A model generated the notes under the pieces. That model searched no databases, was not told where the DNA came from, and worked only from the letters and a program-made list of their open reading frames with translations. The translations under genes and the position numbers were made by a program. 64,000 nt of DNA. Source: Gekko japonicus. Lineage: Eukaryota. Location: positions 954,483 to 1,018,482 of the forward strand of contig NW_015160843.1 of assembly GCF_001447785.1 (NCBI RefSeq), given 5' to 3'. Positions 25,447 to 60,747 of the stretch are shown piece after piece; position 1 is the first letter of the stretch; the number at the start of each line of letters is the position of its first letter.

Positions 25447-26310
25447 TCCATTACATCCCTCATACAGTCATTTTATAAACATTTATCTAAAGCAACACAC
25501 AAAAGAACTGCAAACATTAACTGGCACAGAGCCCAATCCTATGCAGGTCTGCTTTGAAGTCCCATCAAGTTTAATGAGAATTAGTACCAAATAATAATAC
25601 AATCCTAAAAAGGGTTGTACCTTTCTAAGTTTATTGACTTCAATTAGTTTGTATGTAAAACTAGTAGATTTAGTGTTTTAGGATGAAACCAAGATTGCTT
25701 TCAGTGGGTAACTGCAGCTGATAGTGCTTGGCTGACATTCAAACAGGGCTTTGGAATCTGGATCTTCCACAGTACTGATGGGAACTGAACTCTTTAGCTC
25801 TGTTGTATTGCTGTAATGGAAAATATTCTATATTCCAAATTGATGAAAAAAATGCTTTGCTTTCTAACAATGAGGTAGCAATTGCTTAGTAAATTATAAG
25901 CTATCTCACACATAAGGGAAACTATCTTTGCAAAGGCAAAGGTTATTATGGTTTGCGGTTGTGGTAATATACAAGTTTATTTACTTTTTTAAAATATAAT
26001 TTTTATTGCATTTTACACTACAACCTACAAGGTAAAGGGAAAGGGATACATCCTAAAATCTAGAGTAGCAAGGATCATTGTTATGTTATACTTCAAATTA
26101 CTGATGTTTCCCTGTTATCAAAATAGTAAAAGATGAGAACTAGCTATATATAAATAAAATAAACTGTTATCGAAATAGTAAAAGATGAGAACTAGCTATA
26201 TATAAGTAAAATAAACAATCACAGTTATACTTAGCTATAGTGGGTGTATCTTAGTATTAAAGTTGTTAATTAAAAATAAAAAAACAAAACATTAGACTTT
26301 CAGGGTTAGA

Positions 26311-27603
26311 TTACTTTGCAGCTTTCTTTCCTCTAAGCTTCTTTTTATCAAAGCCTAATTTGACTTTTCGAGGTCTAAGAGCAGCATCTCCTAATTCTGC
26401 TTCAGAGTCAAATGATTCTTCAGAGGAACTGCTCGAGGTGCTATCAGAGCTTCCCATGCCTTTATCATCATAAGGGGAAGGGCGGGGTATAAATTTAATA
26501 ATAAATAAAATTAATAATAAAATAAATCATTGTCTTCTGCAACCTTACTGTCCTCATCTTTCTCAGATCCATTCATAGCTTTCTTTTGCTGCTCCAAAAA
26601 AAATTCTGCTTTAGTAACAGAGTCAATCTTTTCTTTTTTCCTGTTGAAGTTGAAGATAAGACATTCAGGCATTATCCATCTGTGGGGAGTGGTATTTTTC
26701 TGTAGAAATAGTATTAGATCTCTGTATTGTTTCCTCCTCTTTCTAATCTCAAATGGAACATTCTTCAAAACTTTAGTTTCTTCTCCTTTGATTTTTAGGG
26801 TTATTCCACATGTCACTTTCAATACTATGTCCCTGTTGACCTTTTAGAGAATTACATGAAAACTTCACCAGGAAGCTTGTTTTTTTAATAAATTCTGGAT
26901 AGGTGCGGTAGACCAAATCCATATCGCTTTGCAAAGTTTCCGCTGTACAGCCCACCACGGGAGCTATTCCTTTGCTTAAGATCTCTTTCAAGTTTTCTCC
27001 TTTCTTTTCCTGAATACCTTGGAATCTTAGGACATAAGAACATAAGAGATGCCAATGTTGGATCAGGCCAAAGGCCCATCCAGTCCAACACTCTGTGTCA
27101 CACAGTGGCCAGAAATACCAGTGCCATCAGGAGGTCCAGCAGTGGGGCCAGGACATTAGAAGCCCTCCCACTGTTGACCCCCCCCAAGCACCAAGAAGAC
27201 AGAGCATCACTTGCCCCAGAGCCCCTAGCTATACCTTGTGGCTAATAGCCACTGATGGACCTCTGCTCCATATGCTTATCTATGCTGATTTTTCCATATG
27301 AAGAAGAAGCAATTGTTGTTTCTCGGAGATTTTTTCTTTTTCCACTGCCTCCAGTCTTTGTTCTAACAAATTTGACTTAGCAACAACTTTTTTGAGCTTC
27401 TTAGCTGTTTTCTCTGTTCTTGCTGAGGTTTCTTTCAGTTCCTTTTGCAGCATATCAAAGTTATTATTAAGATTGGTCATTTGGTCCAGTAGAGGGTGCA
27501 GTGCTGTAGCAATCATTTTAGGAAAGTCTGTGGTTGCTTCTGGTTTAGTAACTGGAGTCAATGAGCTGGCAGTTCCTGAAGAGAATTTCCCCTTAGCTAC
27601 CAT
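26311..27603 (-). pseudogene. L1-type ORF1p (coiled coil + RRM/CTD, transposase-22-like), disrupted
   Basis: Heptad-rich N-terminus, LRFQGI.E motif, then LKIKGEETKVLKNVPFEIRKRRKQY..RWIMP. Interrupted by CR1 and L2-tail insertions. Confidence 0.8.
27034..27280 (-). mobile_element. CR1 3' fragment inserted in ORF1
   Basis: cataagaacataaga...ggatcaggccaaaggcccatccagtcc is the reverse complement of a CR1 terminal hairpin plus (TTCTTATG)n tail. Confidence 0.8.
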
Positions 27604-28313
27604 TTTTTCTGCCCGATGTGTCATTGTTTACATTAAAGGAAAAGTTTTTTTTATAAAGTCTCTGAAAGTCCGATGGCTTGCAATCCTCTTACTAGTCCTC
27701 ACCACACTCAGCCAAGTTATCAATCTCCCTTTCAAGCCACTCTCCTGCCCCTCGCTTTTCTCTTACGAATCAATCTTTCCTGGATCAGGTGAGTTCCCCT
27801 CCCCCTTCCGCTTTGTTCAGGGCTTTGGTGCAGCTTTATTAGTTTGCGAGTGGGCGGTTGTTTGGAAAAGCAAACATCAACTCATGTTTTATTTCATGCT
27901 TCAGTTCAGAGTGTAGGGGGAATCATTTTTCCACCAGATCACTTGTGCACTGTTCCCGGTGTGCACTTCTGTGTACCATGGCTGATCTCATGCCGTGGGG
28001 ACCTTTCAGGGCAAAAAGAAGCATTGATCCTTCGACTCATACCTCGGGAGAGGCACCTCTTGTGCCCCAAGCTATGAGCCCCCTACAAGGGCTCGAGTGG
28101 GTCCAAGATCAACTCGGACCCCTCCCCGTCGGCACGATTTGTGGGGTGCTCACATCAGAGCTGTGATGGAGCACACCCGCCAGCAAGTCGCCAGAACCTG
28201 GAAGTCACAAGTTTATTTACTTTTGATCAATCAATATCTAGACCTTTATTTGGTGGGCAGTTGTACATATGCTTAACTTTCTCCTGTGGGTTGATGCTCA
28301 TCTAGATCACACA

Positions 28314-28504
28314 GGGTTGGATCCAGCCAACTTTTTCATGCAGTCTCATCTAGTTCCCCTCCTTATTCTGGCCCCTGTCACACATGGCTTATTTTCCCTT
28401 TTTGTTCAGGAAGGTCCCATGAGCCCCATCAAAACTTCTTTGTTAGACAAAGGGAACCCATTTATCTCTTTTTCACCATTGTAAAAGCTGGTTGAATTAG
28501 ACTC
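28314..28504. mobile_element. Harbinger-like MITE (GGGTTGGATCCA family)
   Basis: gggttggatccagcc ... gctggttgaattagactc with 3-bp TSD aca/aca. Confidence 0.5.
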
Positions 28505-29551
28505 ACATTGTCTTTCTGCAGAAATAGCCCTTAGCAATCATCCAGAAGATATAGTGCAGAAAGTTCTGATTTTTCATACTGTAACTGTGACTTGCATGGC
28601 TGTGTACCTTCATCTTAAATTCACATCAGATCTGAATTTTTTTATTCATTATGCTGTATCCAGCATGTTATAAAAATCAGCATGTTCTGCCTCTGAACAG
28701 GGCATAATTTTGGTTGAAACATGGCACAGATTTCTGAATCCTTAACTGATGAATCACCTTCAATTGTAACAAAGTCAGTTGTTTTCAGCTTCATTTTCAT
28801 TAATGGAAAGGAGGTATTGATAGGGGGCGGCTGGTGGAGAACACACCTTGCCAGAAGGAGCCCGCACAGCTGTGATAAGCTAGTCATGCACTCCCCACAT
28901 CAATGTCCTCTGGAAAGGAGCAGAGCTATTCTGCTACAGTCTGTGCTACCTGCTCCAATGATGCTAAAATATCTGGGGAAAGAGATTAACAAACTCTGTG
29001 CTAGTCTGCTAATTTTCTGTTGGCATCAGTTCCTGTAAGGCCTCTAAACCAGTGTGCTGGACTGTCAAAAATTATAGAAATATAAAAATCTAGGTTGCAC
29101 ATACCAGAGGTATGTGTATGTATTAAAATCACATGGAAAATTGTGTGACTGTACCAGGTTCATTGTAAAGATAAATGTGCAGTTCCATATCAACACATTA
29201 AAACCAATCAGTAAATGGGAGAACTAGGTATTCTCCTTCCTGCAAAAGCAGGTTAGTTTCTTTAGCCAAGCAGCAGCAGAAATAGGTGAGAAAGCATCTG
29301 GTCCTCCATGCAAGTTCTGTGCTCAGTGATCCAAGCTACACTGAATGTTTCTGTATTACATTATATTGTTTAGAAACAGCAAGCGAGTCATGTGGAAAAC
29401 TGTACACACCAGAAGGTGGACCTGCCACCAGTCAAAACAAAAGAGGTGCATAATTTAATTGGCAAGCAAAAGAGGGTCGGAAGAGAGAAGCAAATAAAAG
29501 TGGATGAGAGTCAGGGGTAATAAAATATTCCAAACAAGATTAAGAAATTGT

Positions 29552-31384
29552 GAGGCTTCTGGTTTTGGCATTCATTATGGCAGTCGCTTCTCCCGATCCT
29601 CTGGGAGAAGACCGCCAGAACCCGTGCTGAAGAGGGGGCGTGATTGTCTGTGCCACCCCTGGAGCCTCTGCAAGAGGCTCCCAGCCATGGGGCACTAGGA
29701 GGCTCTTCCTCTGCTGAGCCTGCCAGCAAAGAGGGGCCTCCCCATATCCTGAAGGTTCCACCGTGGAGCGTCCCATATGGGAATTAGAAGCGCACACCGG
29801 AGCAAGTGTTTGGTGGCTGAGCAACTGGAAAAGAAAACCGGATTTATCGTTGAAATGTGAGCTGAAGTTTAAGCAAGAACCACCAAAAATTTAAGCGGAC
29901 ACCTACCCTTATAAAGTGAGGGGGGGACTCTCCCCCGATAAGAAAAATGAAGTAAACATTGCGATCATACAAAAGGGGGTGGAATACTGAAGCAAGATAG
30001 ACTGAAATTAAAAGCATTTAAGAACTTACCAAGCTGTTTAAGGAGTATCAGAGACTGTGATAACTTTTATAAAAAGTAAACAATCTCAAACATGGCGCCC
30101 ACAAGGAAGGATGAGAAAGACACACAAGAAAAACCAAAGCTTCTTGCTGGAACTGCTGGTCCAGCGAGTCCTGTTCGTAGACAGGACACAACAATAGAGC
30201 TACAAAAGATGCTGACAGAAGCACTGTGACTCCTGCTGGAACAAGCGATGGCACTGCATAGCAAATTCGACGCACAGCAACTGCAACTGACTGAAATAGC
30301 AAAAAACTCCAGATAAAACTGAAGAAAAAAAGTGGATACCAACACCAAAAAGCTTAAAAAATAACTCCAGGTGATGGAAAAAAGAGATTGATGGAGGAGT
30401 CTCAACTGTTACAGCTACAAATGGAGAGAGCAAGCTATGTCTTAAGATTTCAAGGTGTTCCTGAAGAAAAATCTGAGAATCTGAAACAGACTGTGTGATA
30501 CATTAGGACTATGGCAGATATAAAAACGGACATACTACAAAGCGAAATAGATATAATCTATAGATCATATCCAGAATTTACAAGAAAAAATAATCTGCCT
30601 GGGAAAGTGATTATAAGATTCTCAAAAAGACAAGTGAGAGATCAAATACTTAAAGTGTCAAATGGATCTACCTTGAAGATCAAAGACAAAGAAATAAAAG
30701 TGTTAAAGGACATCCTGTTTGAAATAAGAAGGAAGAGGAGGAAATATAGAGACTTGATGACATTTTTACAAAAGAAAAGCATCCCTTATAGATGGTTAGT
30801 CCCCAAACGTACAATCTTCAAATTCATGGACAAGAAAGAAAAAATTGACTCTGTTGAAAAGGCACATGAATTTTTGCATCTACATAGTCGTCCATCAGGA
30901 GAGGTAGAAGCGGAGAAAGAGGTCAGCACTAAAGACAGCAAAGAAGAAGGAGCAGAGGCACCTTCAGATGAGGACTCAGAGTCTAAATTAGGGGCAGCTG
31001 CCCCAAAGACAAGTTACCATTTGAGAAAGCAAATATTTTAAAAATGTGATGTTATTACACTCTGAAAGCTCTTATAATGTATTATTATAAATAAGTCTTA
31101 TATTGCTTTTTAAAAAGTCAGAAGTAGAGGTGTTTAAAGTTATATTATCAGCATAAATGGATTTTTAGAGGACCACATTCAATGAACTTGAAGGGAATTA
31201 TGAGCTAAAAGCTAAATTTGTTAAGCAATATGTATGACCACCATCTCTTGGGGTTTTAGTGGGTTTTTCTTTACTTTCTCCCATAGTATGTAGTTCCCTT
31301 CCCTAATTTCATTGTAGTTTTAATAGTTTGTAGTTTATAAAAAATGCAAATAAAAAAATCCCCTATGGGGGCACAAAAAAAAGA
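29552..31384 (+). mobile_element. Full-length ORF1-only L1-dependent retroposon (HAL1-like), copy 2
   Basis: TSD core aagaaattg (29542-29550, 31385-31393). Disrupted ORF1 at 30092-31041 (MAPTRKDEK...LRFQGVPE...VIIRFSKRQVRDQILK...YRWLVP). aataaa and an A-rich end. Confidence 0.8.
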
Positions 31385-34300
31385 AAGAAATTGCAAGCAG
31401 GGGAAAGGATGGATTTTGCTTTTCATTTGGCCATGCTGTAACCATGACTGTAAAAATGCAGGCATCCCCAGTAGCATTTTGTTTTTTTGGACCAGGCAGC
31501 TTGCCATCCTGCTGTGAAAATGAATATGCTTTTTGTGTGTGATTAAAGTCAATTGCTCCCACTCCCCTTGTTTGTAAAAGCTTAGGAGGCCTTTCTAAAG
31601 GAACACCTGTTAGAAGGATCTGTTTCATAGCTCAGTTCTGGAATCCATAAAGTTCCTCTGTGTTTAACTGGTTCCCAAGGGGAATGAGGGTAAGCATTCC
31701 TCCTGAAATAATCACCTCTGTTATTGGAAAGATGGCCAAATTCTAGGACCGTCATATTTGAACAGACTGTGATATGAAGGAAAGAGTTGGGAAAAATAAG
31801 GATGGAAGGGAATTGCCAGATTTATTTGCTCTTGTGGAACATACATTGTTACCCTGCTTCCATGTTTGCCTTTGAAGACATAGCAACTAAACCTTTCTTG
31901 ATGAAAACAAAAGCTGGTTTCCTGTGACATCTATCATCAATATTACCATTTTAGCTTACAAGGAACTCCAGAATTACATGACTTGCAGGAGAGCAAATGA
32001 AGATTGTTATTAAGGTCTAAAAATGTATAAATAGTGAGTATTTTGCAAGGAGTTCATGAACCAAAGTTTTCTGTTTACTCAAAGAGTCTGTTTGATCATT
32101 TCCAAGGCCATTTACACTTACTGAAAAGCAATATTTTTGTTCAGTTCTTTCAAGTTCCTGCCCAGAATTGTTTTCATTTTATAAGTAAAATAAAGGATTC
32201 AGTATTCATGAGATGAGAAAGGGGTACATGATGAATGGATGAATGGAGGAGACAAAGGATTGAGGGAAAGATGAGTGGGGGAGGGACAGAATTGTGATGA
32301 AGAAGCCAGGAGAGAACCTCTTCCATGGCCTGCCAACTGGATTCTAGGGAGTGTTGAACCTGTAGGAAAGTTGAGGATGAAAAAGGACCGGACAGAGAAG
32401 GCAGTATGCTAAGAAGAAAGGCCCAGGTAGCACAGTGGAAGCCCTAGTCGGTCACCAGACAAGTCATTGCTAGGTACCACTCTATAGCCTATTATTTAAA
32501 TAAAGAGTGAGCAAACCATTCAGTCATTTATAATTTTTTTAAGTTGCCATTTGGTGTTCATGCACATTTTCTTACAGTCTTATGGTAGCCATAGCCCCAC
32601 CCATCATTAATTACTTAACCTAATCTCCATGATTATGGGGAAGAATCAATTCCATCTGTTGTGCATAGTGTAGATGCAAGGGAAGAGGAAATTAACTCCA
32701 CCAATGCAGTTACTGCGCAGTGGCAAAGCTCATTCAGTACACTGTCTCAAGTCAAATGACAGTGAGGCAAAGAAATATGGCTCATGAGGGTTCATGTGTT
32801 GGAGTTCACTGCAAAGTTCAAAGCACTCCTGCTTGGAGGTATATTCATAGAGCAAATATTGTGAGGTAATATAAATTGTACAGAACAGATAAAAAAGCAG
32901 ATACAATCTCATGATTGGCACCTTAGACTGTAACTTTCTTGTTTAAATGGCACTGTGGCTCTGACATCAAAGTTCATTATGAGACCCTCCACTGAAAACA
33001 GTGAAGAATAATTTGTGAGTTATGAAATATTGTGCAATGCTAGATATTACATTGTTTAATATATGTGTTACTAATTATCTCTTGAATTAGTGATAGAACT
33101 GCTAATCAAAGTTGAATCTACTGGTAATTACAAATCAGAACATAACAATTTATACTTGGAACAGAAAGCACACCAGCATCCTAAATTAATGAGAATGTAC
33201 ATTCAAGTGATATAAAAACCCTATAGTCTAGAAGGATAAAAAATTAAAGCATTTTCCAATTGCTTAATCACATATTTAATAATAGGAGCTCATATATGCT
33301 TTTATAAATTCATTACAAATCCGATCTGGAGGCATGCAAGGAAGATGCTGAAGTAACGGAGATGAAGGAAATCTGTTATTAAGAATGTAGCTTATATAAA
33401 AGATCCACCAGCCATTGCCTCAAAGATGAGAGGGCATATTCAGGCTTTTGCTCATTGTATACGATTTCTTATTAGAAATGCAAATTGTCCTGAAATCTCC
33501 AACTGTCGAAATGAAGGAACACACGTTTAATTTAAATCAGCACTGAGGAAAACTCAAAGCAGACTTCATTTGCTCTCTTTGTGCCCTTAAAAGGCTTACC
33601 AACAAATGCATTTCCAGTGAAAGAAGGTAAATTTGTGACAGCTCTGCAAAGACTTTTGAGAAGTTACTGATAGGGATTATTCACGTAAAACAGGTGAAAA
33701 CCTGCTGGGATTTCTGAGACAAGTTTTGCTGGAAGTACATTCACATGTACACACTTATTTGCCCACACCCTGGAAAGAAGAAATCAAACAGCAGCATATG
33801 GGTTAAACTAGGTTTCATTACTGGACAATCTGCCTAATTATAAATCACTTCCCTTCCCCTTTAGTGTAGATGTATGAGCAATCCCAATCCGGCTCTAAAC
33901 TCAGCCAGTATCTCCATCATGCCTTGTTTATCTTTGCCTCTATAGAAACCAAGCCTCACCCCCTCTTGCCTCATATTGCAAGCAGGGGTGTCAAACATGA
34001 AGCCTGTGGGCCAGATCTGGCCCCTGCAGGACTCAAATCTAGTTCGCAAGCAACTGGCTCTCTGTTGCTTCCTTCTCTAGGGCTGCTGCCGCCACCGCAT
34101 CACAGCTTGCTTTTGCCCAGCTCCCTCTTCCTGCTTCCTGCGGGAGAGAAGCAAGCCAAACCTCCCTTCTCTCCATTGGCTGAGCTCTCCTCCTTTTATT
34201 CATTATTTATTTATTTATTTAATTGGATTTTTACCCCGCCCTCCCACCGAAGCGGCTCAGGGCGGCTTCCTTCTCTAGGGCTGCCGCCGCCACCGCATCA

Positions 34301-34399
34301 CAGCTTGCTTTTGCCCAGCTCCCTCTTCCTGCTTCCTGCTTCCTGCGGGAGAGAAGCAAGCCAAACCTCCCTTCCCTCCATTGGCTGAGCTCTCCTCCT

Positions 34400-35375
34400 T
34401 TTATTTATTTATTTATTTATTTAATTGGATTTTTACCCCGCCCTCCCACCGAAGTGGCTCAGGGCGGCTTACAACAATTTAAAGCAAGCAAATACAAAAT
34501 ATAAAATGCAATGAATACAGCAAAACTAAGTAAATACGGCAGCATCCTGTGGTAAAATGCTAGTGTGACCCAGCTGGTGCAGTCAGTTCTTATTTGAACG
34601 CTTGGTGAAACAGCTCAGTTTTCACCACTCTACGGAACTGCTGGAGGTCCCGTAGAGCTCTAATTTCATTAGGGAGCTCATTCCACAGCGTTGGCGCCAC
34701 CAGGGAGAACGCCTTGGTCCTAGTTACCTGGCCTCCCTAGGCCCGTGGGGGTGGGGCAGGTGTTGTTGTGATCCAGACCGCAGTGCTCCTGGGGGAATGT
34801 ATGGGGAGAGGCGGTCCTTCAGGTAGGCAGGCCCCTGACTATTTAGGGCTTTAAAGGTCAAAACCAGCACCTTGAAGTGAATCTGGAACGCTATTGGAAG
34901 CCAGTGAAATGACTTCAGCACAGGCTGGATGTGCTCCCACCTGGGGAGACCCATCAACAACCTGGCTGCCGCATTTTGCACCAGCTGCAGCTTCCGAAGT
35001 TGCCCCAAGGGCAGCCCCATGTAGAGAGCATTACAGTAGTCTAGCCTCGAGGTGACCATAGTGTGGATCACTGAAGCCAGATCATTGCATTCGAGGAAGG
35101 GGATCAACTGCCTAATCAGCCAAAGATGGTAAAAGGCTGCCTAGGCAGTGGCTGCTACCTGGGCCTCCATTGTCAATGAAGCATCCAGGAGCACACCCAA
35201 ACTCCTGACCCTCGGCGCTGGCACCAATGGTGCCCCACCAAAGGCCGGAAGAGGGGCCCCTACCCCCGAGCCACTCTGATTCAGGCAAAGGACCTCTGTC
35301 TTGGTTGGATTCAGTTTCAGATGACTCAACTTAAGCCATCCCACCAAGTCCTGCAATGCCTGGTCCAGATCTTCC
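34400..35375 (-). mobile_element. 5'-truncated L2 LINE
   Basis: LKLNPTKTEVL...VRSLGVLLD...SRLDYCNALY...LQLVQNAAARLL, with the tail at ~34400-34470. Confidence 0.9.
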
Positions 35376-35611
35376 GGGGTAGGGAGGGGGAGGGAAAGCA
35401 AAAGCAAGTCTTGTGCAGGAGAAAGCGCAAAGCCTGACTCCTGTGGTTCCTTTAAGACCAGCAAAGTTTTATTTCAGGTCTAAGCTTTTGTTCTTCTTCT
35501 CCTTCAGAGAGAGGAAGGGAGGGAGGGAGGGAGGGAGGGGTGGTGGTGGTGGAGGGATTCTTCTGAGTTTACATTGAGAACACCCTGCTCTGCTGTTTTC
35601 TTTAAGACTTG

Positions 35612-35623
35612 CTCTCTCTCTCT

Positions 35624-35688
<65 letters not shown>

Positions 35689-35703
35689 GCACACACACGC
35701 ACA
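35612..35703 (+). repeat. (CT)n(CA)n compound microsatellite
   Basis: Direct reading. Confidence 0.95.
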
Positions 35704-48281: not shown

Positions 48282-48569
48282 CCTGTAATTTTCCTTAATA
48301 ATCTGTACTAAACATGTGCAACAGAATGCTTTATAAGAACTTATTTCCTGTGACAGTTAAAAGTTTGCTACAAACTATATAGGAAGTCAGACCTCCCCTA
48401 AAGACGTGGTTGGAAATGCCTAGCTTAGAACATAATAGAATAATAAAGAAGTACTAGTCAGTAGCAATATGAAACAGTCATCGCATTTATGCTTTTGTAT
48501 TTAGAAGGATGAAGTGAAAATGACAATATTAAAAATAAACATTCTTGTTTTATTGATGTTATTTTGGCC

Positions 48570-49310
48570 ATGGGTTGCATATTTGGCTCATGGACCAGGG
48601 ACCCCTTTCTGGCTGCTGCAGGCTGATTCAGATTCTCTGATCTGAATCGGCTTGCCACCGAATTGCTGCTGAATTTTGGTAGCAATTCGGCCCCATTATA
48701 TCCTATGGGCAATTGAAGTAAATGGTAAAAACATAGGGTATATTCTGGGGGCTGGAGGGGAGGGGGTTTGAGGGAGAGGCTCCAAACTCACAGGGTAGCT
48801 GCTGTAGACTCTCCCCAAGATACCAACCATGTTTGAAGAACATTGGACCAGGGCATCCAATTCTACGGGCCCCCAAACAGGTTGCCCCTATCTCCTCCAT
48901 TGTTCTCTATGGTGGGAACAAAGTAACTCTTTTTCCCACCATAGAGAACAATGGAGGGGATAGGGGCAACCTGTTTGAGGGCCCGTAGAATTGGATCCCC
49001 TGGTCCAATGTTCTTCAAACATGGTTGGTATCTTGGGGAGAGGCTCCAGGAGCTACCCTGTGAGTTTTGAGCCTCTCCCTCAAGCTCCTTCCCCTCCATC
49101 CCCCTGAATATACCCTATGTTTTCACCATTGACTTCAATGGCCCATAGGATATAATGGGGCTGAAATTGACATTCGGCTGGCCAAAAGACTCCCAAATTC
49201 ACTGGTACTGACGAAACTGACATGTGGGAGTCTTACTGCTAGCCGAAATTGATTCTGCCCAATTCGGTCGAATCCGAATGGGCCGAATCTTTTTTTTTTT
49301 TGCACACCCC
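48570..49310. mobile_element. hAT-like MITE with a ~470-bp internal palindrome (same family as 20726-21179)
   Basis: Right end ccgaatgggccgaat(t)ngcacacccc as in the 21179 copy. Arms 48691-48918 and 48932-49160 are reverse complements. Confidence 0.8.
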
Positions 49311-52004
49311 TTCTTCAGTTCTCATAATTCAATTTTTCAAAATGTGGCCAGTATGGAAAAGACCTTCTTGGTCATGGAACAAATTCCCTTCTCAGGGATT
49401 CATCTTTTCTCTTCACCAGTGGGTAAAGACTTTTCTGTTTTGTTTGGTGTGCCCTTACTGACTCTCACTGACCCTCCTTCCTCTTCATATGTATATGTCT
49501 TTTATTTTAATTGTTTACATACCCACAGATATGTGTGTGTTTATTATTTGGAGACCCTAATTTGGGTGGAAAGGCAGCTTAAAATATGTTAAATTATTAA
49601 TAAAAACAATAATATAAAAATAGGCTATATGATATGTATTCCAGCTTTGGAACTAACTACTGAGTTGTTGGTTGCTCATATCCTGCTATCTTTACAGAAT
49701 ATCACAACCTTAAAATGGTTCAATATTAATCTGTTCCTCTCTGGGGAACTTGAGAACTTAACTGGGGGGGGGAGTCCTAAGAATATCTAGAATTCTCTAC
49801 ATACTCACCAAACTACAGTTCCCAGAATTCTTTGAGGGAATTTAGAATAAATATATGCTTGTGTTAAAAGGCATCACTACACAGACAGGTGGCCCTAAGT
49901 CCTACACAAGTGAGCAAATATTACTCTGGCACTTCCACTAGGAGATCCACTAAGCATTGCCAGATGCGCTATTCATAGGTCAGTTCACAAATATAAATCA
50001 GCTACTGAATGGAATTAAAAGAGACCTTAAAAGAATCGCAGAATAAACTTTATTGAAAGCTGTTCAGGGAGCACCCCAGTCTCATTTCTTTCACAGTCTA
50101 TAAAGCCAGCCAGCAGCCAGGGGTTGATTCTTTGATGGACATCTATGATGCCTCAAGGCTCAGAATAAAAGGCTTAATTACCTGCTGAGCAGGAAAAGGG
50201 AGCTCTGCGAGCAAAAGGGTGGGGTGTGCATTCCACTCAGCTCTTAAGAAGTGAAAACGTCCTACAGAAAGAGCCATTTTCTTTTCATCTGCAGAAGGCC
50301 ACAGTTCCTCCAAAGAATCTTTCAAGTGAACATGGAGGGACTCCATGCTTCAGACCTTTTCACCTCTAGATCTTTATATTCCAGTTTGTCTTTCCTTTAC
50401 TGATACAACTATCCCATTTCCCTCACACATCCTTGTTTGACTTTTTTCTTTACCTTAGACTTTTTTAAAGGAGGCTTGAGGAATGAACAATGAATGTAAC
50501 TATGTAACAATGATGGCTTTTCAGTGGCTTGAAGATGGTGTGATAGGATTGTTGTTGCCTTCAGGAGTACTTAACAGTCTACACAAACCTTTTCAGTTTT
50601 TTCCCCTTTAAAAATAATTTTTATTGTTATATTTGTGTGTATGCTTTTGTTATTCTGTTACATGTTTCGATTAGTTTGAATGAGTAACTCATTCCCACTT
50701 CAAAACCTCCCCCATTTTGTGGAGTGAAATTCTCAAGTAAAATACCTCTTGCCCAAGGCATGTAGGCTAAAGGGTTCCCATTCTATAGCCCCCCCACAAT
50801 GTAATGGTTTTAATGGGTATATTGGTTTTAAAATGTGATTTTATTATTTGTTAGTCACCTTGGTGGCCCTTATGAGGGTGGAAAGGTAGGATATAAATTT
50901 TGCAAAATAAAATAAAATAAATAAGTGCAGAGAGAGGCCTGGCAGTCTTAGGAGGCAACAACAAGGAGGGGAAACTGTTCTGTGTTAGTGTAAGCCAGCT
51001 TGGCACAATGTTACCCAGTGCTGGGAGAAAACTCTTAAGTAGAGTTCCTTCATACATTCTTTTTTCTCCAGTTGAAGAATCCCCCTTTGAAGTGGCTAAA
51101 TTGACGGAGGTTGCAGGTGTTGTTGGTACAAAGCAAAATCCAGTGAGAATTGTTATAATAACTGTATTAAAGAATAGGATATGCTGAGTTCATATTTTGA
51201 TTAGTTAATGTACATCCCTAGAGTGCACATGCATATACAAACATGTACACAGTTTGTAATCAAACAGATTTTGCAAGTTTTTGTAGTGCTTTGGACTGGA
51301 TTCTGGCAACTTGGAGCCATGTGTTAGCTGTTAAAGATACATGGGGGAGGTGGCAGTTATTCAGTTCCCAATGTGGTTATTCCTTTGTTTTGCCAAATTT
51401 ATGAATGGCTGTGGAAGGATAGAGTAGTATAGGGATGCTCAAACACCCTCTGGCTTAGCTCACTGTTTGTTTGTTGGTTGCAAACAGGGGGCCAACACTG
51501 TGAGCAGTTCAAGCCTATTCATTGGGGATTTCAAGTATTCAAATGGTATAGACCAGGTGTCCCTAACCTTCTGGCACATGGGGGCTGCATTAGTATGCCC
51601 AATACCTAAATAGGACCGCATCTTAAATCAAAATGTAACAAACCTATTAATCTACCTATTTAGAGCAAAAGTAAACATTCAGAGGTCAAAGAAGAAATGT
51701 TAACTTGAATGCAATCCATTTTGGAACAATATTTTACTGTGGAATCCTTTTATCTAGCTACACATGCTTACCTAGTCAGTATGATGTTTGTGGCTGTTAG
51801 CCAAGGCATTAATGTCTAAGTCAAGGTCTGTGACAGACATCCTTAAAATGTTTTGTAAATGTTTGTCTGTAAGTCTTGACCTACACTTGGATTTCACAAT
51901 TTTCATATTGGAAAAAGTTTGTTCAAAGATGTATGTGGTGCCAAAGACTGTGAACATGCCTGCAGCAAATTTCTTTAGGTTGGTAAGTATATCAGGAAGA
52001 CCAG

Positions 52005-54589
52005 GAAAAAAGGTTCTGGTATGGTGCGATGAGTGGGCATTTTTCAGGATGCTCCCGAATCGCCTGATTCCCCTTCGTTCTTTTTGGAGCCTCCTGGACG
52101 ACTGGGTGGGCTCCGCCTGTGCTCCTGGAGAGAGGGCTGGTAGCAGGGGGCTTTCTTTTTACCACTCCCACATTTGGCAAATGTGGGGGTGTGTTCATCA
52201 GTGTCCTGAAGCAGGAGCTTCAAGTAGAGTAAGGCATGGACGCCATGCTTTATTTAGCCATGACCATCCATTTTAACCACGTTTGGATTTATAATTTATT
52301 ACGCAGTAGCACAAAGAAGGAGAAGAAAATAATGTATGTGTATCTTTACTTGCAACTGGGGGGGAAAATGAAAAAAATCTTGGTAAAAAATACCCCAGGC
52401 TGTATATATCCAAAATGGAGATGAAGACTGGCCAGGAAAAATAACTGACTGAGTGTTCCTTTTTTCTTGGGGTAAAACTGTGCTGTTGGTAAGGATTTGT
52501 GACTGATAGAATAGAGTGACATGTGTGTGAAATGGACACTTTAATTTGAATAAATGAGGTGGAAAGATAAAGTATAGTAAAATAGAAATGGCACTCCATG
52601 AGGAAACCAAGGAAGAGGAGAAGATTAATGAAAATACAGAGATTGGAGAACTGTCTATAGAACAATTTCAGAGATTATTGAGGGAAGAGATACAAAAGGG
52701 TATTGTGGAAGCCTTTGGGAACTTTTCTGAAAAAAAGCAGTGTGTGAAAATGAGGAAGAGTTACTGCAGAGTGAGCAGAATGCTGAAGAGGACCAGGAAC
52801 ATGATCAAGAGAAGGTGCTTTTTGACATACAACCTTTATTTACAAGAAGTGTGGAAAACGTTAATAAGCAAATGAGTAGCCAAAGGGAGCCAAAAAGATC
52901 TCATTACTTAAAGACAGATCTGATAAAAAGAGACTTTTTACTAAAAATGAGAAAAATGGTAAAAAAGAGAACAAGTCAAAAGGAGCCAAAGAGACTTGAT
53001 CATTTAAAGATAGAACTAACAAAAAAAACCCTCCAAAAACTTTTGACTAAAGAGATGAGAACATTGTCAAAAAAGAGAACAAGAGGAAGGGCGTGGAAAG
53101 CTAACAGTGACAACAAGAATGTGAACATCCTGTTGAGATCTGGAAGGGGACACATTAAAAGAGAATATAAAGGGGACACATATAAAGAGAATAGACATTT
53201 GGCTATGGTCGTAAAGAAAATAAAATTACAGATTTCCGGGAAAACATTAAGATATATGATTGGGGTCATGTAATGTCTTCTTTTTTTCTCTCTGATGTAT
53301 CTTTAAATGAGAAAATGAGACTCAGGACTGATCCTTTCTGTGTATATTTATATTTTATTTTTATTAGCTATCAAAATTATGTTGTTTTCCTTTAGTTTTT
53401 GACTCCTATTTAACGTGTGTATGAATATACTATTTAGGCGTGTAGTAATAGAGGATTTAAATAATGATTTAAAATGAACCAATAAGAAAGGGGAAAAATA
53501 GTATTAATATAGAGTATAGTTTAGTTTAGATAATTAAAATGTAAGAAGTAGGTTGGCCCATAGAAGGAGGGTGGTGTAACTTGATTATGTGGTCTGTAGG
53601 GGGGGGAAAGGTGTCTGGATAGAAAAATGTAAAAAATTATAAAGTATGGGTGATTATATAGAGGTAACTTGGATGCTGAAGTAGATAGTATTGTAATGGA
53701 ACCTTTATTGGCTAAGCAATTTCTAAGATATGGAGCTGCAGTGGCTCAAGTGGTTAAGACGCTGAACTGCAGGCTGTGGAAGGTCAGTAGTTCAGCAGTT
53801 CGAGACCCGGGTGTGCCACATGACGGAGTGAGCTCCCGTCTCTAGTTCCAGCTCCTGCCAACCTAGCAGTTCGAAAGCAAGAAATTGCAACTAGATTAAA
53901 TAGGCACCACTTCGATGAGAAGGTAACAGCGTTCCGTGCGCCTTGGTGTTTAGTCATGCCGGCCACATGACCACGGAAACATCTTCGGACAGCGTTGGCT
54001 CTTCAGCTTGGAAACAGAGATGAGCACCGCAACCCTTAGAGTCGGACTCGACTGGCTTTCGAGCAAGGGAACTTTTACCTTTACCTTAATTTCTAAGATA
54101 GGATAGACAAGAAAGTAGGCTTCCTTTGCGATAACATGTTTAATAATAAATAACTGGTTTGAAGGCTATGGTATATCTTTCAAAATGGTAAAAATCTTAC
54201 TTAGACAACAATGGTAAACGTGAATTGTTGGGTATAAGAACCAATATGGGTTAAATAATCTTCAAGCTAGACTGGAAAAGTAAGCAGGTTTCCTTGGTGT
54301 TATCTGAGCCAACAGTAAATAATCTATTTGAAATAATTAGAAGGGTATGATACATCTTTGAAAATGTAAAAAGCAATGTTAACTGCAAATTCCTTTTTGT
54401 AAAAGTAATATTAGCATATTATAAATGAAATACACGTACAATCGAAAGTTGTTATAACTGCTATAATTGTAATGCCTAGAGAAAGAAAGATATTTTTTTC
54501 TTTTTTCGGATGTGTTATTGTATAGAATATATGGATGTTGGTTTATGCACTTTTTGTTTGGAAAATAATAAAAAAAACTTTTTTAAAAA
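52005..54589 (+). mobile_element. TSD-flanked non-autonomous retroposon with an unassigned ORF
   Basis: 11-bp TSD aggaagaccag (51994-52004, 54590-54600). GC/CpG-containing 5' end. Frameshifted ORF at 52588-53273. AT-rich 3' region ending aataataaaaaaaacttttttaaaaaa. Confidence 0.8.
53731..54087 (+). mobile_element. Full-length Sauria SINE
   Basis: tRNA-like head (gtggctcaagtgg, gttcgagacc), body cctgccaacctagcagttcgaaagca, tail (accttt)n, 13-bp TSD aatttctaagata. Confidence 0.93.
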
Positions 54590-57500
54590 AGGAAGACCAG
54601 AATAAAAATTTGAGAGAGATATTTTTTTTTGTAATTGTCTCTGAGATGATCACTGGCTTGCAAGTCAATTAGTTCCAACTGGGAAAAGTTACTGGTATCT
54701 TCAGGTTCTACTTCAAATGGATTCTGAAACACTCTTTTCCTTTCCGTGGTTATGGCAATCAGTCAATCTGTTCTGGAATTCCACCTGCAAAAGGTTCAGT
54801 GCTTCTACAGAATTTTTAGCAGAGCAGCAGTTGCAGAGTTTCAATATAGTCCTTGAATAAATAGAAATATGAGAAGTATAGTTTTAGAGGCCTAACTCTT
54901 CGCTTTCCAATCAAATCCACCCCACTTTAGCTGCTATTAGCTGGGGATTTTCATTTTGACTATGGCAAAGAAGAGAAAAGCCCCCTGCCTCCCTACGCGC
55001 TACAGTTCTCAGGAGTATTGGGCCACATGCAGAGGCTAGGAAGAATTTTTTAAAAATGGATTATGAATCTGACCTACCAGATGGCAGAGTTGCAATCCTA
55101 AATGCATTGAATACTATGAGATTTATTTCTTAATAAACACACAGCCTTGAGGTTTAAATCTACACATGATAGTACTTTAAAAATTGGAGGCCCTTCCAAA
55201 AAAATGACAGGTAGAGAGAAAGAGCTAATGAAATGGCAGCCTCCCACCTGGAGAAGAGGATAATTTGAAGCAGGGTGCACATACACATCACTGCCTGCCA
55301 GCCAAGCCTCAACCATGAGAAGCAAAATGACAGCTGGGGTAGGGGAACTTGCTGGAGGAAGATGTGGGAAGGGGAATCCCATAAGTTTCCCTGCTAAGAG
55401 AGTAGTCCTTCCCTCTCAACCCAAGGGGCCATTCCCTGGCTCCTGCAATCACAGATGCCTGAGAAGACTTCTAGCTCGAGTGAGTGGGGGAGGAGAGGCA
55501 AAAGCAAGCAAGGCAAGAAGTTAGAGCAACCAGCTCTTGCGGACGAAGAAAGCAGCAACCTCACCAGTAACCTTGGAAGCCACTCAGAGGAGCCTTGATG
55601 GGTGGAGCCTCTAGAAATGTTCAGTATGCAAAACACTTTGTATCCTTTCTTTGGCAAAAATACCAGCCCTTTTACTGTCCTTTTTTGCAAAGCAGGCCAG
55701 ACATCTCTTGTACCCATTCACATATATAGCCTTCAACGCGGCAATGCATGGAGAGGGGGAGCAAAGAAGCTGAGTGGTACAGATACCTGAGCTTTGCTTG
55801 CTAGCAAAGCACCCAGAATGGTCCCAGTGCTAGTATGGAGGACAAAACCAAGAGAGGGCTGACAGAAGGAACCAATGTTGCTGTTGTGTTTTTTGCAAAA
55901 AAGGGACAGAAGAACAGCAGTAGATGGTGCCTGTTGAGGCACAAAGAACAGTGGGTCTGAGGGAAAAACCTTTGAGGGTGATAGCAGTAAACAAGGAGGT
56001 TGGAGAGCCACACAGAAAGAGTCTGGGGGGCACAGGTTGTAGACCCCTGGTGTAGAGCAATTGGGAGTGTTTCATGCCTGAACATTCTCTCACATTCTGA
56101 TGGCAATTCTACTTCGCCCTTCTCCAACAAACCTGTTCTTGCTGCGCACTGCTTGGCAACCAATAAACATTGAACAAATCAACCAGTCAGCAAGTGATGA
56201 TAAGTAAACACTTTTTTAAAAAAGGATTTACAATTTTGTATTGGTTTAATTTTATTTATTTATTTATTTATTTATTTTTGGGATTTCTATCCCGCCCTAC
56301 CCAGAGGCTCAGGGTGGCTAACAACAGTTTTTAAAAGTTTATAGCAATAAAACAATAATATATACAATAAAATCTGGTGCTACAGTCCATCCCGCACCAC
56401 ATTGCCAACTTGATTTCACGCCAGTGCATTTTCACACAGCCTTGTAGGTGGCATAGGCCCCCCCATGTTGTTTAATGAGCTGACCTGATGATCCATGACC
56501 CCAGGAAGAATTAATCTCACCGTCTGCACAAATGCAAAAGCCCCTGCAAGGTGCTGTCACTACCATTGCTGTGCAGCTGCAGAGCTGTTCGACAGCTATT
56601 TAAGGTGGTCGATGGACAAGCAAACAAACTGAATGTTCAGCTCAAGGTGACCACTTCCATTGAACATAGTACATTCAACTATTAAGTGTGTCTGCCGTGA
56701 AATTCATGGTACCTGTTAAAGTTAAGTTTCTAGATTCAATCTGGGAGTGAGCATTTGGCCTGAGATTGACCTGTCTGTGAGTGACAGCAACAGGTGCAAT
56801 TAAACTGGTCTGAACTAATTCAGAAACTGGGTAAAAGAAGAGTCACATGCCTAAGCAACAGCATAGATCTGTTAGACCACCAAGTTCTTAACCAATCATA
56901 TGTTTTCCCACCAAAACGTGTATGTTGGAAGTTGTAATAAAGTTTCTTTCTAATTTCTATAAATGTATTGTGGAAACTCAAATCAGGGTCCTTGAGTCTG
57001 CTTTTCTTGGACCCGTGTGCATTAAAATAAATCCTGTTTTTCTGTTCTGTTTAAGGAGTCTCTGGTTTTGCAGGTGGTTATTTCCAGATTCAGCCTTCAG
57101 GGTGACCCAGAATGCCAACAAATTCCAGGACATACCTCTAGTAACACTGAGTTGAATAGTATGGCCAGAGGCTAAAGGCAGTTCTACAGGGGCATCTAAT
57201 CACTCACCAAAGAATCCAGACCTTCATCAAATTGCACTGAATTACTCTCTCAAGTTACATGTGTAGAAGATATGGAAGACAGTGGGCAAAATGGCCCAAA
57301 GCTCAGGGACCCTTGAAGGAGTGAGAGAAATAGGTTCCCTCCCATGCTTTCTGAGTCCAACCAGAAGGTCTGCAATGTACTTTATCATTTTTAGAAAATG
57401 CACTGAATCAGAATTTGAATGAATTCTCCTTTATAACCCAGTTCTCAGGATATTTTTACTGTGTCTCATAAATTATATCCCCCCTTTTTGTTTGTGTTTT

Positions 57501-57657
57501 ATTGCCTGTCCCTGGATGATTCAGGTGATATATGCTTTCATTCTCCTCTATTATTTTAGGAACAAGCTCTTAATCGACTGAGAGACAGAAAGGTAGTTGT
57601 CTCCGCTGACCTCTCATTAGGATGCTTCTTCTGATGGAACCACTCTACATACACAGT

Positions 57658-58122
57658 GGCCGAGTTCAGACTGGCAGCTTGCCCCGATATAGGCACGTTT
57701 CAGAAATGTTCCACAACTGGATTAAAAGGGCCATTCATACAGACACATCTGTCAGGCGTTCCCCACCTGTACTCAACCCGTCTTGTAACGCTTCGCTCCC
57801 AAGTTTAAAAGATACCTGGGGAAAGTGGTAGCAAACCCTGGAAAGCGCGATTATCTTGTGTCCATCCCGCACCAACAAAGTGTGAACGCCAAAAGCTGCA
57901 TTTTTCTTATGCGCATAACCGCATTTCTCCAGATTACCAAAAAAGAAAGCTGTACCTTATAGCCGTGCCTCCAGGCCAACAGTGTGAACGCTCCCTTGCG
58001 CCTCTTCCTGATATGCTCCCACATCAGTTGCTGCAGTGTGAACGGGAAAACCCAGAACAGTTTGTTCCGGCTCTTTTTTGCCACGACTCGTCCCGCTTCA
58101 AACTGCCAGTCTGAACTCAGCC
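57658..58122. mobile_element. Non-autonomous PIF/Harbinger element
   Basis: 20-bp TIR ggccgagttcagactggcag / ctgccagtctgaactcagcc, 3-bp TSD agt/agt, internal gtgtgaacg x3. Confidence 0.85.
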
Positions 58123-58706
58123 AGTGTCTCTGGAGGCTTCAGAGTCAGAGCTGAGACTTACTATGATGTCTGGGGATCAGAAAGTCATGATACTCAGACT
58201 CTGATTTAGGGGCTCAAATTGTTGTACCTGTTTGATCTACTTACTTAAATTTATATCTTGCTGTATTGCATGTAGGCTCAGCACAACTATCACAGCATTA
58301 TGTTGTAATAATAAGCGATAACCCAGTGTTGAATAGGAGAGGAGCTGAAGGCTTGACCTTGTATAAATCCAGCCATATATGATAGTGTGAATTGCAGATA
58401 TCTAGTAGGGAACAGAAAGCACTCTGAACATGCTCACAAACACTCATGGGGAAATCATTAGTGTTGCCAACATGCCTGGAGAAAAAATGTCCCGTCCCTT
58501 TAGTAGAGGCTTAATGGATGTTATTTACCAGGTGAAATTTACTTCCATGGCATGAAAAGCTTTAACTTATTAAAAAGACAGGATTCGTGGATGGTAGGGC
58601 ATCAGTGGCTACTAGCCATGGGAACTAAAGGGAACTTCCATATTCAGAGGCAGCAAACCTCTGAATATCAGTGCTAAAGAAATTATATGTACCTCAATGC
58701 TCTGTT

Positions 58707-60525
58707 GTTCTTTTAATTTGTATTACATTTTCATTACATACTACAAAGGGCAGGGAACGTGGAAAAGCTAACTATAAAATACAGATAAACAGGGATCTAA
58801 TACGATAAAGAATGACTTTTTCCAAAATTTCCCTTAGCTTTAACATTCTACATGATGAAGAGTGGGATTAGCTGATTCAGATATATTCCAGTACAAACAA
58901 TATTAGCCAATAAAGTGTATTATGGTATATTAAGCTAAATATTATTAAACTTTCAGGGTTAATTCACTTTTAGTTCTTTTTCCCTTTAGGCTTATTTTTA
59001 TCATAGCTCCATCTGACTTTAAGGAGTTTGGGGGCAGCTTCTCCCAAATCAGATTCAGAGTCTTCTCCTCAGGAGCTGCCCGCTGTAGAGCTGTTTCCTG
59101 ATCCAGTTCCGCTGTAATCCTCTTCTGCATTGTTGTCCTCCATTTTTCTTCTTTCTCTGTTTTTTTGATGCTACTCCAAAAATGCATTAGCTTTTATAAC
59201 AGAGTCTATTTTTTTATTTTTTTCTCTTTGAAGTTGAACATAAGACCCTTTGGCAAAATCCATCTGTAGGGAGTGGAATTTTTCTGTAGAAATGTTGTCA
59301 ATTTTTGTATTGTTGTCTCATCTTTCTTATCTCAAATGGAATGTCATTTAAAATTCTTATTTCTTCACCTTTGATTTTTAGAGTAATCCCGTTAGTTCCT
59401 TTGAGTATAGCATCTCCGATAGACCTTTTGGAGAATTTCACAAATATTTTACCAGGTAGCTTATTTTTCTTGAAGTAGTCTGGATAAATCTGGTAGATTA
59501 CATCCATTTCACTTTGTATATGTTCCGCTTTAAGGTCCACTACCGGTGCCAAGGCGTCGCTTAAAATCTCCTTGAGGTTTTACCCTTTTTGTTCTGGAAT
59601 ACCATGAAATCTCAGGATAAATGATGAATTTTCAATTTGTAGTTGTAACAGCTGTTGTTTATGAGAGGATTTCTCTTTTTCCATGGCCTCCAATCTCTGT
59701 TTCAATGCTTTTGTCCTAGCATCGACTTTTCTCACTGACTTTGCTGTATTCTCTGTTTTTATATTGACTTCTTTTAGCTGTTTTTGGAGAGTCTCTAAGT
59801 AATTATTAAGATGAGTCATCTGGTCCAGTAGAGGGCACAGTGCAGTGGTTAACATGCTTGGAAAGTCTATGGTTGCTTCCTGTTTGGAAGCCGACGCTGT
59901 TGAGCTGGCAGTTCCTGAAGGAGAAAGTCTTACTTTCGACGCCATTTTTTCAGTCCAATGCAGGATTGTTTACATTAAGAGAAAGGTTAAAAAAGTCTCT
60001 GTAGTCTCATGCTTTTTAACCAGTCAGCACTCTATTTGTGCTAAACAATGCTTTTTAATCAGCTTCCCCCCCTCCACCTCTTACAGTTGCTGATTTTTCC
60101 TCGCGGGATGAGACCAGCTCAATTCCCTCCACTTTTGAATTTAAGGGGTTGGGGGAAGCTGTCTGCTTAGATTTTTGTCTGGATTAAAAGCATATGGACT
60201 CAATTTTCATTGGCTGCTTGCTTCAGTAAGGTAACCTTTAAACCTTTAAATCACTTGATCTCCTGTTTGCCTGTCTCGGTGTGCGTTTGTGTCGCCATTG
60301 CTGGTCTCGCAGTGGTGGGACCTGTTGAGGCAAAGAAGAGCCTCAATCCCTCAGCCGTGCCCTCGGGAGCAGCACCTCTCGCGTCTCAGGCTACGGGCCC
60401 CCTGCAAGGGCCCTGGGGGGGACCAGAATCATCCGATACCCCTCCCAGCTGCTATGGTCCCGGGTTGCATTCATCGGCGCTCAATGAAATGCACCTGTCA
60501 GCAATTTGTCAAAGCCAGAAACCCT
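58707..60525 (-). mobile_element. Full-length ORF1-only L1-dependent retroposon (HAL1-like), copy 3
   Basis: 14-bp TSD ctcaatgctctgtt (58693-58706, 60526-60539). Disrupted ORF1 at 59945-58970 (MASKVRLSPSGTA...LRFHGIPEQK...LKIKGEEIRILNDIPFEIRK). ~260-bp 3' UTR. Confidence 0.85.
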
Positions 60526-60747
60526 CTCAATGCTCTGTTTGTTGGCTCTCCAGAGTAACTCTTTGGTTGCAATGTGAAGTAGGTTGCTGGAGTAGATGGA
60601 TAACTGGTCTGTTCCTGTCATGTTCTTATGACATTTTTTTTTCCAGGCCAGTTGGTAAACATAGATAATGTATTTAAGGTCTGAAACAGGTTTGGGGCAA
60701 ATTTGACCCTCAGTTTCTGGCTAAAACTGTGCTTGATAAATAAAAAG

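Follow-up and report, generated by a model that had tools for sequence, protein, structure and literature searches.

The window analysed here, a 64,000-nucleotide stretch of the Gekko japonicus genome (assembly GCF_001447785.1, contig NW_015160843.1, positions 954,483 to 1,018,482 of the forward strand), contains three retroposons that encode ORF1 only, each flanked by a target-site duplication (TSD). Their features, in window coordinates, are as follows.

25989..28206, minus strand: copy 1, a full-length ORF1-only element of subfamily c1a that carries two secondary insertions
28207..28224, minus strand: upstream TSD of copy 1, 18 bp; TC precedes it, giving the target TC/AAAA
25971..25988, minus strand: downstream TSD of copy 1, 18 bp
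26311..27624, minus strand: broken ORF1 of copy 1 (336 aa in the consensus), with insertions, stops and a frameshift near 26843
27037..27282, minus strand: later insertion of ~246 bp in the ORF1 of copy 1, SINE/LINE-tail-like, a gap against the c1a consensus
26469..26526, minus strand: later AT-rich insertion of ~58 bp in copy 1
26002..26007, minus strand: AATAAA signal of copy 1
29552..31384, plus strand: copy 2, a full-length ORF1-only element of subfamily c2b, with 94.4% identity to the subfamily consensus
29542..29550, plus strand: upstream TSD of copy 2, 9 bp
31385..31393, plus strand: downstream TSD of copy 2, 9 bp
30092..31041, plus strand: broken ORF1 of copy 2 (321 aa in the consensus), with stops and a frameshift near 30380
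31349..31371, plus strand: AATAAA of copy 2, then a predicted G:C hairpin directly before the A tail
58707..60525, minus strand: copy 3, a full-length ORF1-only element of subfamily c3a, with 94.5% identity to the subfamily consensus
60526..60539, minus strand: upstream TSD of copy 3, 14 bp
58693..58706, minus strand: downstream TSD of copy 3, 14 bp
58970..59945, minus strand: broken ORF1 of copy 3 (324 aa in the consensus), with stops and frameshifts near 59300-59220

The three copies had been recognised in a sequence-only reading as TSD-bounded units, and exact duplications of 18, 9 and 14 bp were indeed found at the ends it proposed. The 9-bp duplication of copy 2 is weak on its own, because control windows give 3-9 bp; yet over 1.83 kb this copy shares 94% identity with a subfamily in which most of the other copies have TSDs of 10-18 bp. 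Copy 1 is 93.5-94% identical to the c1a consensus over its first 1,444 bp, and the ORF1s of copies 1-3 are mutually homologous (68-73% DNA identity). The common layout and total length of ~1.8 kb were recovered in the subfamily consensuses, with a 5′ UTR of ~540-590 bp, an ORF1 of 308-336 aa and a 3′ UTR of ~250-360 bp. The ORF1 frame that each copy was thought to have kept is open in none of the three, all being interrupted by stops and frameshifts, and the window elements are decayed, dead copies. Two motifs noticed in all three copies, DSExxLGxAA in the protein and ctgaaag after the stop, are present in the c1, c2 and c3 lineages (the second also in a ctgaaag-like form in n107) and are missing from c4 and Y, which are younger lineages. 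Pieces similar to the ~58-bp AT-rich insertion of copy 1 occur in the window at 9451-9503, 20437, 34195, 34400 and 56251.

Genome-wide, the expected discrete length peak was observed: the 126 full-length copies have a median length of 1,817 bp (IQR 1,788-1,834), with 94 of them falling between 1,760 and 1,900 bp. TSDs of at least 10 bp with at most one mismatch flank 107 of the 126 full-length evaluable copies; overall, TSDs were found in 114/156 evaluable copies versus 16/156 control windows, 8 of 164 loci being omitted from these counts (contig ends or gaps), and their length across the clade is 10-24 bp with a mode of 17. Three loci were dropped, L118 without an ORF1 match and L055 and L170 excluded from clustering. 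The absence of a continuation into ORF2 was borne out, as an ORF2 start follows ORF1 in 0/164 loci and in 0/15 more, compared with 19/20 autonomous controls, and 119 of the 179 loci were retrieved with 5′-half or protein queries, which are unable to select for the 3′ UTR. No ORF2 remnants were found in the consensus 3′ UTRs (best E 0.5). Matches to ORF2 downstream of L036, L045, L141, L147, L149, L150, L169, L196, L197, L212 and L213 were rejected as continuations, starting in mid-ORF2 or lying on the opposite strand; such matches are read as probable insertions of clade copies into older elements, and a TSD confirms this for L107 and L141. Upstream of L147 there is a gap, while L212, which is cut within its 3′ UTR, has a repeated upstream flank. 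The consensus ORF is open over 308-336 aa in 13/16 clusters, and the family, which makes up 1.5% of a 388-kb sample, is an abundant one, its mobile copies numbering in the thousands and decaying in place. The genome searches scored only the top 40-150 candidates out of thousands, so a rare ORF2-bearing parent could escape, particularly as the assembly has gaps.

In the proposed comparison with the Transposase_22 profile, Pfam returned only coiled-coil noise on the window fragments and a weak match on an intact copy (E 0.045, below the cut-off of PF02994). The identity of the protein rests on PDB and fold searches: the clade ORF1 matches L1 ORF1p in a profile search (E 1.3e-16) and human ORF1p in phmmer (E 5.5e-6), and its structure model (pLDDT 86) has a fold like that of human L1 ORF1p (Foldseek E 1.4e-10). 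A single-sequence fold of ORF1 (pLDDT 51) was discarded. As modelled, the clade ORF corresponds to an L1 ORF1p with a predicted coiled coil, RRM, CTD and acidic-basic tail. Among 1,828 candidates of a word-index protein search none reached E 0.001 or better; an HMMER search of representatives found 473 proteins, and the exact sequences of two intact ORF1s had no match in the protein collection.

At least six lineages with 33-51% mutual identity lie on one branch (SH-aLRT 98-99 in two trees, both quick searches in which long branches can attract), and the best identity of the clade ORF1s to 32 ORF2-linked ORF1s is 36.5-39.4%. One protein from outside this genome falls within the clade and snake relatives fall outside it; a spread of the family across squamates is not supported. 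Different lineages have 3′ UTR motifs in common, and five share a Y-x-L-R-x-R/K tail spacing that is missing from c1 and c3; the ORF1 tail of copy 2 is acidic and then ends in Y-H-L-R-K. Structural alignment gives the clade ORF1 16-17% identity to human ORF1p, used as the mammalian reference for testing descent against HAL1, HAL1b and HAL1M8, versus 33-39% to the L1 ORF1s of this genome, and on these sequence comparisons the half-L1 design here appears to have arisen independently of mammalian HAL1.

Purifying selection on ORF1 was evident among the subfamily consensuses, where dN/dS (NG86) is 0.10-0.25 in the 20 estimable of 24 pairs; with CpG sites left out, 8 pairs gave 0.13-0.42. The pooled private substitutions gave 0.85, which is near neutral, with two clusters low on private changes too (0.43 and 0.52). 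A first neutral control, using all copy-versus-consensus differences, gave 0.13-0.67 instead of 1, a deviation attributed to subfamily substructure and CpG decay. Indels in inserted copies are mostly frame-shifting, for example 34/46 and 44/66. Selection acts on propagating master lineages and not on inserted copies, and constraint on the branches between propagating subfamilies fits selection for mobility. The earlier suggestion that the retained ORF1p might interfere with L1 particles finds no support here. The fixed locus and conserved ORF of a domesticated gene were not seen, the window copies being broken and private changes near neutral.

The clade includes very recent copies. In the young subfamily at least 40 copies are identical over 321 bp (40/40 scored matches at 100%), the ORF1 is intact with a core distance of 0.000 among 20 loci, and none of these 20 is ORF2-linked, though the identical copies may have been partly homogenised by assembly. 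RNA reads from one study span the whole unit and are absent over the flanks, apart from a few running in from them; because the reads lie on both strands and these few enter from the flanks, read-through is possible. Among the indexed runs that contain the young copy none is recorded as RNA, which counts neither for nor against its expression. Young autonomous L1s coexist with this subfamily, having an intact 1,249-aa ORF2 with EN and RT and 99.75-100% identity.

At the GACTTCCGG end of the element, the consensus 5′ starts match, with slightly different spacing, the lizard clade 1 L1 terminus type GACTTCCGGTGN8ATGGCG, and they match the autonomous loci L267/L269 as well. Beyond this terminal motif no 5′ UTR similarity to autonomous L1s was found, and the 3′ UTRs share nothing beyond A-rich words with the sampled autonomous L1s (7 ends; loci L260-L319; a subset of L1 families). 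The L1-endonuclease-like target preference noticed at copy 1 extends to the clade, whose target sites (TC/AA 15, TC/AG 13 and TT/AA 9 of 114) are similar to the sites used by autonomous L1s of this genome. Five lineages retain, in differing sequences, a predicted hairpin that lies between AATAAA and the A tail (18/28, 19/25, 7/13, 14/14 and 5/15 copies with z below -2 against mononucleotide shuffles); it is scarce in autonomous L1 ends (3/42), in c1 (0/6) and in c3 (3/25).

HeT-A is a telomere-specific element. Together with Ag-Sponge (CR1 clade), HeT-A (Jockey clade) is an ORF1-present non-autonomous LINE of insects, as described in the available part of PMC5786205; both resemble the gecko clade in having only an ORF1/Gag-like protein, proposed there to multimerise with the helper's proteins, but belong to other LINE clades and insect hosts. 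The closest design is HAL1 (half-L1) of placental mammals and marsupials, portrayed in the accessible text of PMC5753468, PMC3627910, PMC5786205 and PMC13756887 as L1-derived, non-autonomous, ORF1-only elements with maintained ORF1 coding capacity and several independent origins. The gecko clade is likewise L1-derived and ORF1-only, with coding capacity maintained in the lineage; unlike HAL1, it has a lizard host and lizard-L1 ancestry, near-identical young copies, RNA, at least six deep lineages and, in five, a 3′ hairpin and YxLR tail. With lizard clade 1 L1 (Boissinot and Sookdeo 2016; available part of PMC5381506) it shares the GACTTCCGGT..ATGGCG type of 5′ terminus, the coiled coil-RRM-CTD ORF1 and the AATAAA plus poly(A) end, but it is without ORF2 (EN, RT), measures 1.8 kb versus ~6.4 kb and has a 5′ UTR of ~0.56 kb versus 0.8-1.5 kb. 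Among the sampled L1s no autonomous parent was found. L1TD1, in the accessible portion of PMC4161310, is also an ORF1p-derived protein without ORF2, yet a domesticated host gene as opposed to thousands of mobile copies that decay once inserted. The Y-x-L-R-x-R/K tail matches the spacing of the Tyr and anchor Arg in the Gag chromatin-binding sequence of prototype foamy virus (PMC10450195 and PMC12125541, as far as their available text goes), a putative likeness of 4-6 residues that c1 and c3 lack. In the literature, as distinct from Repbase and Dfam, no reptile HAL1 was found and the ORF1-only LINE-1 design was found described only in mammals; as the design is already known, the surprise is limited.

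The three window elements are very probably dead copies of a multi-lineage, ~1.8-kb ORF1p-only L1 clade, likely of a single lizard-L1 origin. The clade's own ORF1p likely packages its RNA, and autonomous L1s likely lend the ORF2p that copies this RNA into sites of the T(C/T)/AA type. That this is an ORF1-only family, as had been proposed, is supported by the lack of continuation into ORF2, the length peak with TSDs, the selection on ORF1 between subfamilies and the L1-like target sites. The L1-type 5′ end, to judge from its motif, likely serves as an internal promoter, and RNA of the youngest subfamily is indeed present; master copies would need their ORF1p, as the selection suggests, presumably binding in cis. 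An L1 likely supplies ORF2p in trans, and target-primed reverse transcription would start from the poly(A) tail, consistent with the TSDs, tails and targets. Inserted copies decay neutrally, as their substitutions show, and a few masters seed successive subfamilies.

An improbable alternative is that each subfamily is a separate by-product of an unsampled autonomous L1, generated by premature polyadenylation or internal deletion, with the ORF1 constraint incurred in the parents. According to the accessible text of PMC4859970, 3′-truncated ORF1 RNAs are able to retrotranspose, only best-scoring matches were examined here, long L1s often stop in N gaps, and a one-off ORF2 deletion does exist in this genome (L268). 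That locus, however, is a single copy whose junction is spanned by 1/39 matches, its ORF1 is 79% DNA-identical to an autonomous family and nested among autonomous ORF1s, and it keeps the parental 3′ end at 91%; all these traits are missing from the clade, whose lineages have 3′ UTR motifs in common and whose near-identical young subfamily yielded no ORF2-linked locus among 20. It is also quite unlikely that the reverse transcriptase was borrowed from a non-L1 LINE recognising the 3′-terminal hairpin. The retention of the predicted hairpin in five lineages and its scarcity in autonomous L1 ends would suit such a helper, but the poly(A) tail, 10-24-bp TSDs and TY/AR targets agree with this genome's L1s, and c1 and c3 spread without the hairpin.

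That ORF1p was retained to serve the host, or to inhibit L1 particles in an L1TD1-like, dominant-negative way, rather than for mobility of its own RNA, is very unlikely: a dominant-negative model was proposed for L1TD1 (available part of PMC4161310) and the young subfamily is transcribed, but the near-neutral decay of inserted copies, their mostly frame-shifting indels and the constraint between propagating subfamilies oppose it. Chance deletions or assembly artefacts, for which a gapped draft assembly and a few odd loci (L205, L212) might be cited, have next to no likelihood, being refuted by the discrete length peak, by the TSDs in differing flanks and by the end-to-end coverage of the unit in independent read sets.

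A bolder extension of the borrowed-ORF2p reading, possible though doubtful, is that an ORF1p-only parasite lineage outlived its parent L1, hopped between helper L1 families throughout its history, now exceeds the autonomous L1s in number of ORF1 copies and continues to jump, beating L1 cis preference by means of its own ORF1p, a hairpin at the 3′ terminus of its RNA and a nucleosome-binding tail like that of foamy virus. If true, this would be the first living HAL1 system for testing the role of ORF1p in ORF2p capture. The need of HAL1 for its own ORF1p and a borrowed ORF2p has been inferred from old mammalian copies (available text of PMC3627910); the intact, near-identical, transcribed ORF1-only subfamily beside intact young autonomous L1s therefore allows that inference to be tested without sequence repair, together with what underlies L1 cis preference. 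The clade further shows that the half-L1 design has emerged outside mammals, and that surveys based on ORF2 or RT can miss a family that, from a small sample, amounts to roughly 1-2% of a reptile genome.

The three elements of about 1.8 kb marked by the sequence-only reading do lie in the window where it placed them (copy 1, 25989-28206 on the minus strand; copy 2, 29552-31384 on the plus strand; copy 3, 58707-60525 on the minus strand), with exact target-site duplications (TSDs) of 18, 9 and 14 bp. The ORF1p-like frame attributed to them is present in all three, but none is intact: stops and frameshifts interrupt each one, copy 1 additionally carries two later insertions, and the window copies are dead elements. 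Their ORF1 regions share 68-73% DNA identity, and the copies belong to three different subfamilies, with about 94% identity to the consensus in each case. Other elements in the window are the following.

23315-25478, plus strand: non-L1-type LINE remnant with EN (PF14529) and RT (PF00078) matches
52300-54300: decayed stretch rich in A, holding acidic-basic frames at 52558-53273 (plus strand) and an AT-rich tail
17877-17992: 5S rRNA-like match just above the Rfam cut-off
5191-5262: tRNA-like match just above the Rfam cut-off

Fragments similar-looking to the LINE remnant occur near 8900, 21300 and 34700-35470. The A-rich stretch, which matched neither Pfam nor the ORF1 sets, is possibly another retroelement remnant, and the 5S rRNA-like and tRNA-like matches are probably SINE heads or pseudogenes. 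Frames at 61115-61510 (minus), 51772-52158 (minus) and 63464-63933, which we take to resemble GIY-YIG (Penelope-type) and hAT transposase fragments, had no Pfam match.

Searching the gecko's own genome (2.49 Gb) gave 3,911 first-look candidates with copy 3 as query, 7,182 with copy 2, 1,887 with the 5′ half of copy 1, 5,272 and 1,150 with the 5′ halves of two other copies that sit inside L1 bodies, and 30,547 with a database protein, totals that are not copy numbers, as only the best 40-129 candidates per query were scored. Among 164 loci analysed, 156 were evaluable for TSDs, and 114 of these had one of at least 10 bp, versus 16 of 156 control windows. In the 126 loci with both ends, a selection of best hits biased toward full-length copies, the median length was 1,817 bp and 107 had such a TSD. 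An ORF2 start 3′ of ORF1 was found in none of the 164 loci (900 bp or more could be read in 153 of them) and in none of 15 loci of another lineage, whereas the same test was positive in 19 of 20 autonomous loci. A discrete, TSD-flanked unit lacking an ORF2 start recurs across the loci, which argues for an ORF1-only family rather than chance deletions. What a chance deletion looks like can be seen in L268:546-3110 (G000:C8334), a single-copy L1 with a 15-bp TSD, a full 5′ UTR and an intact 356-aa ORF1 joined directly to the last ~70 bp of its parent; it nests among autonomous L1s and retains the parent's 3′ end. It is an ORF2 deletion that occurred once and separately from the clade, and a natural control that the clade does not resemble at all.

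Forty 10-kb stretches, sampled from large contigs at round coordinates and totalling 387,880 non-N bases, held five clade segments, three near full length (1.5% of bases), no autonomous ORF1 and four L1-type ORF2 fragments; Poisson extrapolation from this small sample, on contigs with earlier matches, gives ~32,000 segments genome-wide (10,000-75,000). ORF1-only copies are often nested within older autonomous L1s, mostly in the orientation of the surrounding L1, individual cases being L102:4110-5790, L107:3120-4940, L141, L147 and L234. Copies L009, L208 and L210 end early in the 3′ UTR, yet have 18-23-bp TSDs on both sides, possibly through early polyadenylation or internal priming.

The identification of the protein as ORF1p held in sequence comparisons and in the predicted fold, although Pfam by itself missed it. 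Human L1 ORF1p was matched by a naturally open 321-aa ORF with E 5.5e-6 and by a 95-sequence profile with E 1.3e-16, and the model of the young subfamily's 308-aa protein (pLDDT 86) shows a long helix, an RRM and a CTD, human ORF1p filling its top ten Foldseek matches. Named database relatives of this genome's L1 ORF1s come from geckos, snakes and one agamid; one protein with a gecko name sits on a short branch within the group of the genome's autonomous ORF1s. Public databases label squamate L1 ORF1 proteins (P0003, P0017, P0004) as ‘apolipoprotein A-IV-like’ or ‘myosin-6-like’.

The copies form sixteen clusters, which make up at least six lineages (c1, c3, c2, n107, n102, c4/Y), the deepest sharing 33-51% ORF1 identity. 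They form a single branch in two quick trees (SH-aLRT 98 and 99) that took in 16 and 32 ORF2-linked ORF1s, respectively, as outsiders, to which their best identity is 36.5-39.4%. The suggested dN/dS comparison among subfamily consensuses gave 0.10-0.25 (20 estimable of 24 pairs), or 0.13-0.42 without CpG changes (8 pairs), versus a pooled 0.85 for private substitutions (7 clusters, range 0.43-1.17); a cruder control using all copy differences gave only 0.13-0.67, so the contrast hinges on splitting private from shared changes. The lineages appear to be one old clade, and their ORF1 is under selection. Another run has a 1,540-bp contig encoding P0001, a 305-aa protein that groups within the clade with 57-67% identity to c4/Y copies, and the clade is likely present in another organism.

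At its 5′ terminus the clade agrees with the consensus of lizard clade 1 L1 (excerpts of PMC5381506) and with autonomous loci L267/L269, and its insertion targets are rich in TY/AR, as at autonomous sites, the A bias being partly a tail effect. In the proposed comparison of 3′ ends, motifs common to several lineages' 3′ UTRs were not found in the sampled autonomous L1 ends. Five lineages have retained a predicted hairpin, with differing stem sequences, that separates AATAAA from the poly(A) tail, in copy 2 as follows.

31349-31371: predicted 3′ hairpin of copy 2, between AATAAA and the tail

The hairpin-bearing lineages also end ORF1p in Y-x-L-R, an ending found in 1 of 96 database relatives, namely the one inside the clade, and resembling the foamy virus Gag nucleosome-binding motif (excerpts of PMC10450195, PMC12125541); c1 and c3 have neither. 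Since lineages with both traits are related, the co-occurrence is not independent, and both traits are leads.

The family is apparently still active. The ORF1 core is one and the same sequence in twenty loci with different flanks, and all 40 scored matches were 100% identical over 321 bp, giving the young subfamily at least 40 identical copies, an identity that may come partly from assembly homogenisation. The youngest subfamily (L206:925-2776; L195-L214) has an intact 308-aa ORF1 crossed by RNA reads: three RNA-seq runs of one study placed 328, 157 and 540 reads over the unit and 0 in that locus's flanks. The reads map to both strands, with a few running in from flanks elsewhere, which leaves transcription from its own promoter putative. 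Young autonomous L1s are candidate helpers, among them L310-L316, seven copies with 99.75-100% identical ORF2, five with both ORFs intact, in which a 363-aa ORF1 overlaps a 1,249-aa ORF2 with EN and RT domains. L260/L261 and L264/L265 are further young-looking autonomous families.

In the most probable mechanism, RNA would be transcribed from the L1-type 5′ UTR as a presumed promoter, packaged in cis by its own ORF1p, and reverse-transcribed in trans by the ORF2p of an L1 helper. Mammalian HAL1, as described in excerpts of PMC5753468, PMC3627910, PMC5786205 and PMC13756887, works alike, and the clade has its sequence-checkable features, but it does not descend from mammalian HAL1. No reptile HAL1 turned up in the literature searched, excerpts of PMC5203782 make no mention of HAL1, and Repbase, Dfam or genome-paper supplements may list the repeats, perhaps as plain L1. 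The family is real, its HAL1-like design was already known, and the lizard version is independently derived.
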